Shown here one piece after another: positions 4,155 through 4,258 of a stretch of 5,072 bases of DNA. The DNA comes from a virus (lineage: Duplodnaviria; Heunggongvirae; Uroviricota; Caudoviricetes). Positions within the stretch are counted from its first letter, which is position 1. Each line of letters starts with the position of its first letter. The stretch is from IMG/VR virus record IMGVR_UViG_2675903425_000026; one strand, 5' to 3'. The notes below the pieces were generated by a model. That model made no database searches and was not told the origin of the DNA. It worked only from the letters and a program-made list of their open reading frames with translations. A program made the position numbers and the translations under genes.

Positions 4155-4221
4155 AACATAACAACCGCAACGACTTTATCAAAAGCGTTGTGTTTGTTAT
4201 GTCCCGCGGTTTAGTTTTTAC
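4155..4221 (+). terminator. Long imperfect hairpin followed by a T-rich tract; candidate terminator for the repressor-antitoxin-toxin operon
   Basis: 17-bp stem, 4156-4172 pairing with 4186-4202, with one mismatch and one G-U wobble; 13-nt loop; then cccgcggtttagttttta. Lies 18 nt after the parE stop. Confidence 0.4.
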
Positions 4222-4258
4222 TTGACTTAAGTTTAATGTTTATTAAACTAAAAATACC
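4205..4258 (+). promoter_or_regulatory. Second operator/promoter cluster (OL-like) sharing motifs with the OR region
   Basis: GTTTAGTT at 4209-4216 (vs GTTTAGTG in OR). TTGACTTAA at 4222-4230 (identical 9-mer in OR as rc of 3226-3234). GTTTAATGTTTATTAAAC at 4231-4248 matches OR 3206-3223 at 16 of 18 positions. TTGACT (4222-4227), 16-nt spacer, TAAACT (4244-4249) as a possible rightward promoter. Confidence 0.45.

Follow-up and report, generated by a model that had tools for sequence, protein, structure and literature searches.

The window analysed here is a stretch of 5,072 nucleotides (nt) from a Caudoviricetes virus record (IMG/VR IMGVR_UViG_2675903425_000026). It is the paaR2–paaA2–parE2/ydaS–ydaT immunity region of CP-933P (Sakai Sp12), a cryptic, lambda-like prophage carried by Escherichia coli O157:H7, and its segment 4205–4258 is the left operator (OL) and left promoter (PL) of that prophage, already known and published as PL933P/OL. 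Almost certainly, the segment acts as a rightward sigma-70 promoter that is occluded by PaaR2 or YdaS at two overlapping operators. An initial annotation had seen here a second, OL-like copy of the motifs of the right operator (OR), with a PL-like rightward promoter; a reader using sequence alone had correctly recognised a lambda-style left operator–promoter, experimentally characterised in 2021.

Open reading frames (ORFs) and Pfam matches, with PaaA2, ParE and YdaS among the names given by Pfam, mark the window as a lambdoid immunity and replication region. Positions 2781–5072 are 100% identical to O157:H7 TR01, without a mismatch. Phage Evi is 98.6% identical to the same positions. For 3140–4420, identity to strains of E. 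coli O157:H7 is 100%, and this interval is present for the most part in 595 of 5,426 complete E. coli genomes. The OL/PL segment adjoins the paaR2–paaA2–parE2 operon in the ydaS–ydaT region, as judged by ORFs, Pfam and the RefSeq annotation of the identical O157:H7 locus.

The same immunity region was studied by Jurenas et al. (mBio 2021, PMC8630535), who cloned a fragment named PL933P, with operators OL1–OL3, before gfp. The primers for this fragment, F-PL-SacI and R-PL-BamHI (Table S3, PMC8630535), match the window with 0 mismatches at 4138–4158 (plus strand) and 4234–4255 (minus strand), respectively. Because the primer pairs for the right promoter (PR) and for the promoter PRM in that table put gfp beyond the BamHI end, the PL fragment reads rightward in the window. 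PL933P–gfp was active and was repressed about 100-fold in vivo by PaaR2 or by YdaS, and the −35 and −10 elements of PL933P are identical to those of PR933P (PMC8630535). At OR, the PaaR2 and YdaS footprints cover matching repeats, which are 18-bp inverted repeats with the half-site consensus GTTTAGTAA; an explicit analogy was drawn to lambda OL/PL and to looping by CI octamers (PMC8630535).

Anatomy and conservation of the left operator–promoter

Within the cloned fragment, the promoter scan returned a sole plus-strand sigma-70 match, TTGACT-16-TAAACT (4222–4249), which together with the published activity of PL933P–gfp (PMC8630535) bears out the PL-like rightward promoter that had been proposed. 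By sequence, operators overlap both the −35 and the −10 of this promoter, which points away from the repressor gene (Table 1). The stronger operator can be read as an 18-mer (4231–4248) with arms AGTTTAAT and ATTAAACT, while the right half of the weaker one, ACTTGA, supplies the −35. Their centres lie 22 bp apart, about two helical turns. We call the stronger site OL1-like and the weaker one OL2-like, labels that are separate from the paper's own numbering OL1, OL2 and OL3. The direction of PL agrees with the orientation of the published gfp fusion and with the strand-specific structure of the leader described below; for a leftward promoter in OL, the promoter scan lists none, the best minus-strand reading being TTGGTA-19-TAAACT.

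The operator words are exceptional for this DNA. The pattern TTTAGT-N4-ACTAAA, with two mismatches or fewer, occurs in the 5,072-base window only at 3207, 3246, 4210 and 4232, and five 14-mers led by GTTTAGT start at 3187, 3206, 3245, 4209 and 4231. We scored the window with a symmetrised weight matrix built from the operators of relatives in other genera, the window itself excluded; the consensus of these relatives alone, GTTTAGTAATTACTAAAC, equals the published half-site consensus. Scores are 23.3 at 3246, 23.1 at 3207, 18.8 at 4232 and 11.3 at 4210, set against a maximum score in 200 shuffled windows with a median of 4.5, a 95th percentile of 10.9 and a highest value of 17.0. Site 4232–4247 is clearly non-random. 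On score alone site 4210–4225 is borderline, and its position is conserved in relatives. In type, the strong and the weak site match those of OR at 3207 and 3246, in keeping with the second operator set that the initial annotation had described.

Word by word, the individual motifs of that annotation are where it placed them. Motif GTTTAGTT lies at 4209–4216, and the 9-mer TTGACTTAA at 4222–4230 (plus strand) has its reverse complement at 3226–3234. The match extends to a 12-mer, TACTTGACTTAA, at 4219–4230 (plus) and 3226–3237 (minus), a pair with a chance expectation of 0.01; two such pairs occurred in 0 of 200 shuffles. GTTTAATGTTTATTAAAC at 4231–4248 and GTTTAGTGTTTAATAAAC at 3206–3223 share 16 of 18 bases. 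The two gaps, 8 nt in OL (4231–4238) and 3 nt in OR (TGG, 3223–3225, minus strand), are correct and the inversion is present; both differences arise mostly because the operator is near-palindromic and GTTTATTAAAC occurs in different registers, so that different registers were compared.

Each read in its own direction, PL and PR share one design, in which TACTTGACTTAA is followed by a 16-bp operator ending in TAAA, and these four bases also open the −10. The core differs only in spacing, with 18 nt between −35 and −10 in PR and 16 in PL, and the weak auxiliary operator lies upstream over the −35 in PL but downstream of the −10 in PR (from 3188). OR and OL align on either strand, the pairwise comparison by which the initial annotation had proposed to check its claim. 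On the same strand, OR 3181–3230 and OL 4202–4254 are colinear, with about 72% column identity and a 3-bp indel that creates TTGACT, which suggests a common origin for OL and the left half of OR.

Scanning for PaaR2 at one genome per species gave 27 loci with relatives of 43–76% identity, from Photorhabdus, Xenorhabdus, Yersinia, Erwinia, Morganella, Raoultella, Winslowiella, Arsenophonus and other genera. In nearly all of them a pair of operator 16-mers, spaced by about 38 bp, immediately precedes the repressor gene, and a further copy lies downstream. The full plus-strand composite (a −35-like hexamer, 16–18 nt, then an operator end that with CT makes TAAACT) follows the repressor operon in 19 of the 27, where block shuffles average 0.375 and never exceed 2; the loci are not independent, with six from Photorhabdus and five from Xenorhabdus, and represent about ten lineages. 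A block GTTTAaTTTTTACTTkACTT stands upstream of the operator, at the same position as in the window, in Photorhabdus, Xenorhabdus, Massilia and other loci.

Whatever the cargo, the cassette always closes the repressor operon, 0.5–2.4 kb from OR. Between repressor and cassette the relatives carry nothing, an Arc-like protein, a DUF4236 protein or a coiled-coil protein, where the window has the toxin–antitoxin pair paaA2 and parE2 (3666–4137) as cargo between the repressor and OL. Among CP-933P-type variants in E. coli, differences fall mostly outside the half-sites and hexamers, and in one decayed copy (L051) the operator centre and the −10 are altered. The outcome is modestly useful: a base-level map, a −10 built into an operator half-site and the same cassette across many genera. 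It also suggests that PaaR2-type regions, S24-bearing relatives included, generally take up cargo in the slot that separates the repressor from OL. As to the latter, the PaaR2-type N-terminal domain and the operator set are also found fused to Peptidase_S24 (LexA/CI-type) in Yersinia (L139 and L148, among loci L124–L150).

Repression of PL and competing readings

In the mechanism that we propose, PL fires rightward, away from parE2, from a predicted start near 4256, and is overlapped by two GTTTAGT-N4-ACTAAAC-type sites, as in OR. Occupation of these sites by the CI-like PaaR2 or the Cro-like YdaS would exclude RNA polymerase and keep silent an early-left operon made up of the leader, ydfC, the small RNA (sRNA) DicF, dicB, ydfD and an exonuclease. 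PaaR2 residues 1–71 match PDB entries 7nkv/8c3k, "Phage repressor protein CI" (E = 5e-41), and the paaR2 gene is leaderless, with its ATG at 3274. PaaR2 and YdaS presumably bind directly at these exact OL bases; binding at the two OL sites may be cooperative, and any OL–OR loop would span 1.0 kb.

Several points weigh against this account. The two convincing sites found here, beside which the scan gives an overlapping, off-register match at 4239–4254 (score 9.7), face three in the publication. Neither the −10 TAAACT nor the 16-nt spacer is optimal, and the PL start at 4256 is predicted. Published evidence for PaaR2 and YdaS on the OL fragment consists of in vivo repression only (PMC8630535). 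The paper is also inconsistent on the place of PL933P, given as "upstream of the RAE2 locus" in the text and as "downstream" in a figure legend (PMC8630535), a conflict that the primer positions settle in favour of a site downstream of parE2. The first annotated gene downstream (ECs_2282 family, 4568–4768) is on the opposite strand, and the prophage is cryptic, which obscures what the operon does biologically.

The sites could instead serve mainly as a distal anchor at which PaaR2 octamers loop to OR, tuning PRM/PR, toxin–antitoxin expression and a bistable switch, with control of the left operon secondary; we consider this unlikely, though it is the strongest of the competitors. Its geometry is suitable, since OL and OR are 986–1025 bp apart here and 0.5–2.4 kb apart in relatives, and the looping range of lambda CI includes OL–OR distances of this size. 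The pCP-933P plasmid of the bistability work included PL933P. PaaR2 is reported to be octameric, and looping was raised as a possibility on that ground (PMC8630535). OL–OR looping by the repressor is plausible, but such a loop would be compatible with promoter control and not exclusive of it. The operator-built −10, conserved across genera, argues for selection on promoter occlusion itself.

That the segment is a non-functional relic, left by partial duplication of the left half of OR through recombination at the edge of the immunity module, is highly improbable. The colinear OR/OL alignment with its 3-bp indel, the mosaic joints directly beside the segment and the cryptic state of the prophage would all accord with a relic, but the likely common origin with OR does not count against function. 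Cloned before gfp, the fragment is an active promoter with about 100-fold repression (PMC8630535), the cassette recurs in 19 of 27 loci of other genera where 0.4 would be expected, and the substitutions in E. coli avoid, for the most part, the half-sites and hexamers.

Between the parE2 stop and OL lies an imperfect hairpin (4156–4202) with an RNA fold of −24 kcal/mol (z = −4.68) and no T-run; compensatory changes are absent among CP-933P-type variants, the 3′ arm changes in L001 and L032 being uncompensated. It is possibly the 3′ end or terminator of the paaR2–paaA2–parE2 transcript. Despite this stable hairpin just upstream and T-rich runs at 4211–4219, there is next to no chance that the segment itself is such a 3′ end (a terminator or insulator) with operator-like words as incidental AT-rich sequence, given that the hairpin lies outside the segment and varies without compensation, that the words are statistically exceptional and conserved elsewhere without it, and that a terminator at 4156–4202 can coexist with OL/PL.

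A structured leader and the early-left operon

Downstream of PL, the region 4254–4420 matches 3,705 of the 5,426 complete E. coli genomes, including K-12, where it lies in Rac between racR and ydaG. Mosaic joints delimit this leader at either end, with three different downstream continuations near 4423. In viral contigs, about a dozen unrelated heteroimmune promoter–operator modules (Rac-type, HK022-immunity-like, CP-933P-type and others) are found upstream of the shared leader, each with a sigma-70-like promoter whose −10 ends 9–14 nt (mode 11) before the shared block starting at 4261. As immunity-specific DNA ends at the promoter and shared DNA begins at about +1, the PL start is predicted near 4256.

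Diverged copies of the leader, fetched with a degenerate core pattern, form a long bulged hairpin whose helices change sequence yet keep their pairs. RNAalifold gives compensatory changes in 11 of 18 predicted pairs. In a 15-pair structure, the paired share of cells is 82.4%, compared with 66.7% for shuffles (none of 500 attains the former). Both sides change in 14 of the 15 pairs, where shuffles give 8.2, and covariation scores 0.499, as opposed to 0.223 for shuffles and 0.05–0.16 for slid controls; the shuffle control ignores phylogeny, and derivation of the structure from the same sequences on which it was scored favours it over the slid versions. The leader structure is well supported by covariation. 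Since its G–U pairs are possible only on the plus strand, the hairpin belongs to the rightward transcript, fitting the direction of PL. Across diverged copies the tail has the consensus AAGUAGCCAGCCYGAGGCRNAUGAACAUGACGGC. Covariance model R1, whose alignment agrees with the covariation picture, has a single match in each prophage locus, with none in HK022 (L151), HK639 (L245) or most PaaR2 relatives.

Other approaches returned little. Rfam has nothing credible in the whole window, nor in 4240–4440 with lax filters, the hits (mir-4703, speF, Xist and the like) falling far below their gathering scores. The fold of the whole leader is not significant (z = +0.87), and only comparative analysis reveals the hairpin. 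A literature search for the conserved words of the leader returned only unrelated eukaryotic papers. We rejected a conserved protein (ORF 4342–4506), as relatives keep the first 6–8 codons and then run into a frameshift or a stop after 6–20 codons. A put RNA was also rejected, with only chance words shared with HK022 putL/putR in blastn-short and no similarity to the annotated putL of HK639, as was the HnrS/EcOnc12 sRNA of Sp12, which lies in the late region.

Tentatively, the PL transcript may start, within a few bases of +1, in an undescribed structured leader that is a cis control element of the early-left operon in N-less lambdoid prophages; we regard this as possible, with the balance somewhat against it. 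It might act by anti-termination at the RNA level, as a switch of translation or for RNase III, or through a short upstream ORF guarding against Rho. If the proposal is true, a widespread covarying element starts the early-left transcript of N-less lambdoid prophages that carry DicF, dicB or kil, and recombination genes affecting host physiology.

Two further observations concern the modules joined to this leader. HK022-immunity-like modules (ATGTACTTAAAGTAC...TTTACA) in L010, L043, L048 and related viral contigs join this leader and not, as in HK022 itself, putL. In viral contigs L095 and L104, a different PL module before the same leader re-uses GTTTAGTT, TTGACT and TAAACT (…ACTGTTTAGTTAAGTTGCAGATTGACTGTTAAGTTTATTTTTGTATAAACT…), and may represent a second PaaR-like type of immunity, paaR1 for example.

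Table 1 Features of the window and of the early-left operon, in order of position
Feature	Position	Strand	Basis or detail
IstB/DnaC-like ATPase	753–1493	−	ORF and Pfam
O-like helix-turn-helix protein	1500–2462	−	ORF and Pfam
YdaT/CII-like gene (ydaT)	2485–2877	−	ORF and Pfam
YdaS/Cro-like gene (ydaS)	2874–3176	−	ORF and Pfam
PR	TTGACT (3234..3229), 18-nt spacer, TAAACT (3210..3205)	−	Promoter scan
OR operator overlapping −10 of PR, TTTAGTGTTTAATAAA	3207–3222	Palindrome	Within published PaaR2/YdaS footprints
OR operator in PRM spacer, TTTAGTGATTACTAAA	3246–3261	Perfect palindrome	Between TTGCTT (3239–3244) and GATAAT (3262–3267)
paaR2, 123-amino-acid helix-turn-helix CI-like repressor acting on OR and OL	3274–3645	+	Published cloning primers identical to window sequence
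paaA2 antitoxin	3666–3857	+	Pfam PaaA2, 1e-19
parE2 toxin	3859–4137	+	Pfam ParE_toxin, 1.9e-16
Fragment cloned as PL933P–gfp, containing the OL/PL segment	4138–4255	+	Published primers
Imperfect hairpin, parE2 stop to OL, within published PL933P fragment	4156–4202	+	22-nt arms, 82% complementary
Weaker operator, OL2-like, TTTAGTTTTTACTTGA	4210–4225		Overlaps −35; 2 mismatches to TTTAGT-N4-ACTAAA; score 11.3
−35 of PL, TTGACT	4222–4227	+	Promoter scan; inside 12-mer TACTTGACTTAA common to PR
Strong operator, OL1-like, TTTAATGTTTATTAAA	4232–4247	Palindrome	Overlaps spacer and −10; weight-matrix score 18.8; inverted repeat
−10 of PL, TAAACT	4244–4249	+	Promoter scan; first four bases are the strong operator's last four
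Predicted transcription start of PL	4256	+	7 nt past −10; spacing to shared leader block
Conserved leader, about 165 nt, beginning at about +1 of PL	4259–4423	+	Comparative
5′ hairpin of leader	4264–4320	+	Helices 4264–4268/4316–4320, 4272–4275/4309–4312, 4281–4286/4302–4307
Conserved 15-nt loop, CAAUACYNCGAGUUA	4287–4301	+	Nearly invariant
Near-invariant tail, AAGTAGCCAGCCCGAGGCGTATGAACATGACGGC	4322–4355	+	GAGG Shine-Dalgarno-like motif 4335–4338; ATGs at 4342, 4348
ORF of 118 amino acids	4433–4789	+	Annotated in phage Evi; overlaps minus-strand ECs_2282-family gene
ECs_2282-family zinc-binding gene, 66 amino acids, CxxC...CxxC	4568–4768	−	RefSeq; would run against PL
ydfC	From 4861	+	Annotation of identical O157:H7 locus
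DicF sRNA, between ydfC and dicB	L002 6283–6334, about 1.2 kb past right end of window	+	Rfam, 76.7 bits

The rest of the early-left operon, ydfD and then a truncated exonuclease, follows dicB on the plus strand. Near the ECs_2282-family gene there is a weak promoter-like match on the minus strand (4785..4758). On the other side of the immunity region, a run of 50 N at 2725–2774 breaks ydaT. In the otherwise identical locus of O157:H7 TR01 these flanks enclose 83 bases; the masking alters the length, and the window's ydaT ORF is artificially short. At the ydaS/ydaT junction, TTGATT-TTCATG-AATCAA (2867–2884) fits the published YdaT box 5′-TTGATTN6AATCAA-3′ (PMC9986795).

Relation to known systems

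The closest known system is PL933P itself (Jurenas et al. 2021), with which the segment shares the DNA, the location downstream of parE2, the −35 and −10 held in common with PR933P and the regulators PaaR2 and YdaS. The object is unchanged; what we add are base-level coordinates, the −10 embedded in an operator, chance statistics and cross-genus conservation.

For the leader only, there is a likeness to the put RNAs of HK022 and HK639, as a structured RNA immediately downstream of PL in N-less lambdoid phages. The two differ in sequence, without similarity, and in form, the leader being one long bulged hairpin in one copy per prophage and put having two stem-loops.

The Rac (RacR) and Qin (DicA, dicB operon) prophages of K-12 have the same order of ydaT, ydaS, repressor and left operon. 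In Rac, a near-consensus TTGACA-17-TATAGT precedes the same leader at an equal distance, and the left-operon genes rise 40–70-fold when RacR is disturbed. To our knowledge, the Rac left promoter has not been characterised as such. Qin shares the downstream ydfC–DicF–dicB–ydfD block. The repressors and operators of both are unrelated to those of CP-933P, the Rac repeats being of the ATTAGGCAT type.

Like lambda OL/PL, the segment is found where the repressor operon ends, separated from the repressor gene by cargo (rexAB in lambda; paaA2–parE2 here), and its operators, of the OR type, overlap both hexamers (−10 and −35) of a promoter pointing outward. In both systems a CI-like and a Cro-like protein repress, the repressor is octameric, and a cell-division inhibitor and an exonuclease are among the early-left genes. 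The operator sequences are dissimilar, and two convincing sites are found here where lambda has three. PaaR2 (123 amino acids) is without an S24 self-cleavage domain, with no Pfam domain hit and in agreement with the paper (PMC8630535). ORFs, Pfam and annotation give no N-like ORF, and Rfam gives no credible hit in the window; downstream of PL a different conserved leader is found instead. As judged from these features of its sequence, OL/PL of CP-933P is predicted to work like lambda OL/PL, but not with the N/nut arrangement of lambda.

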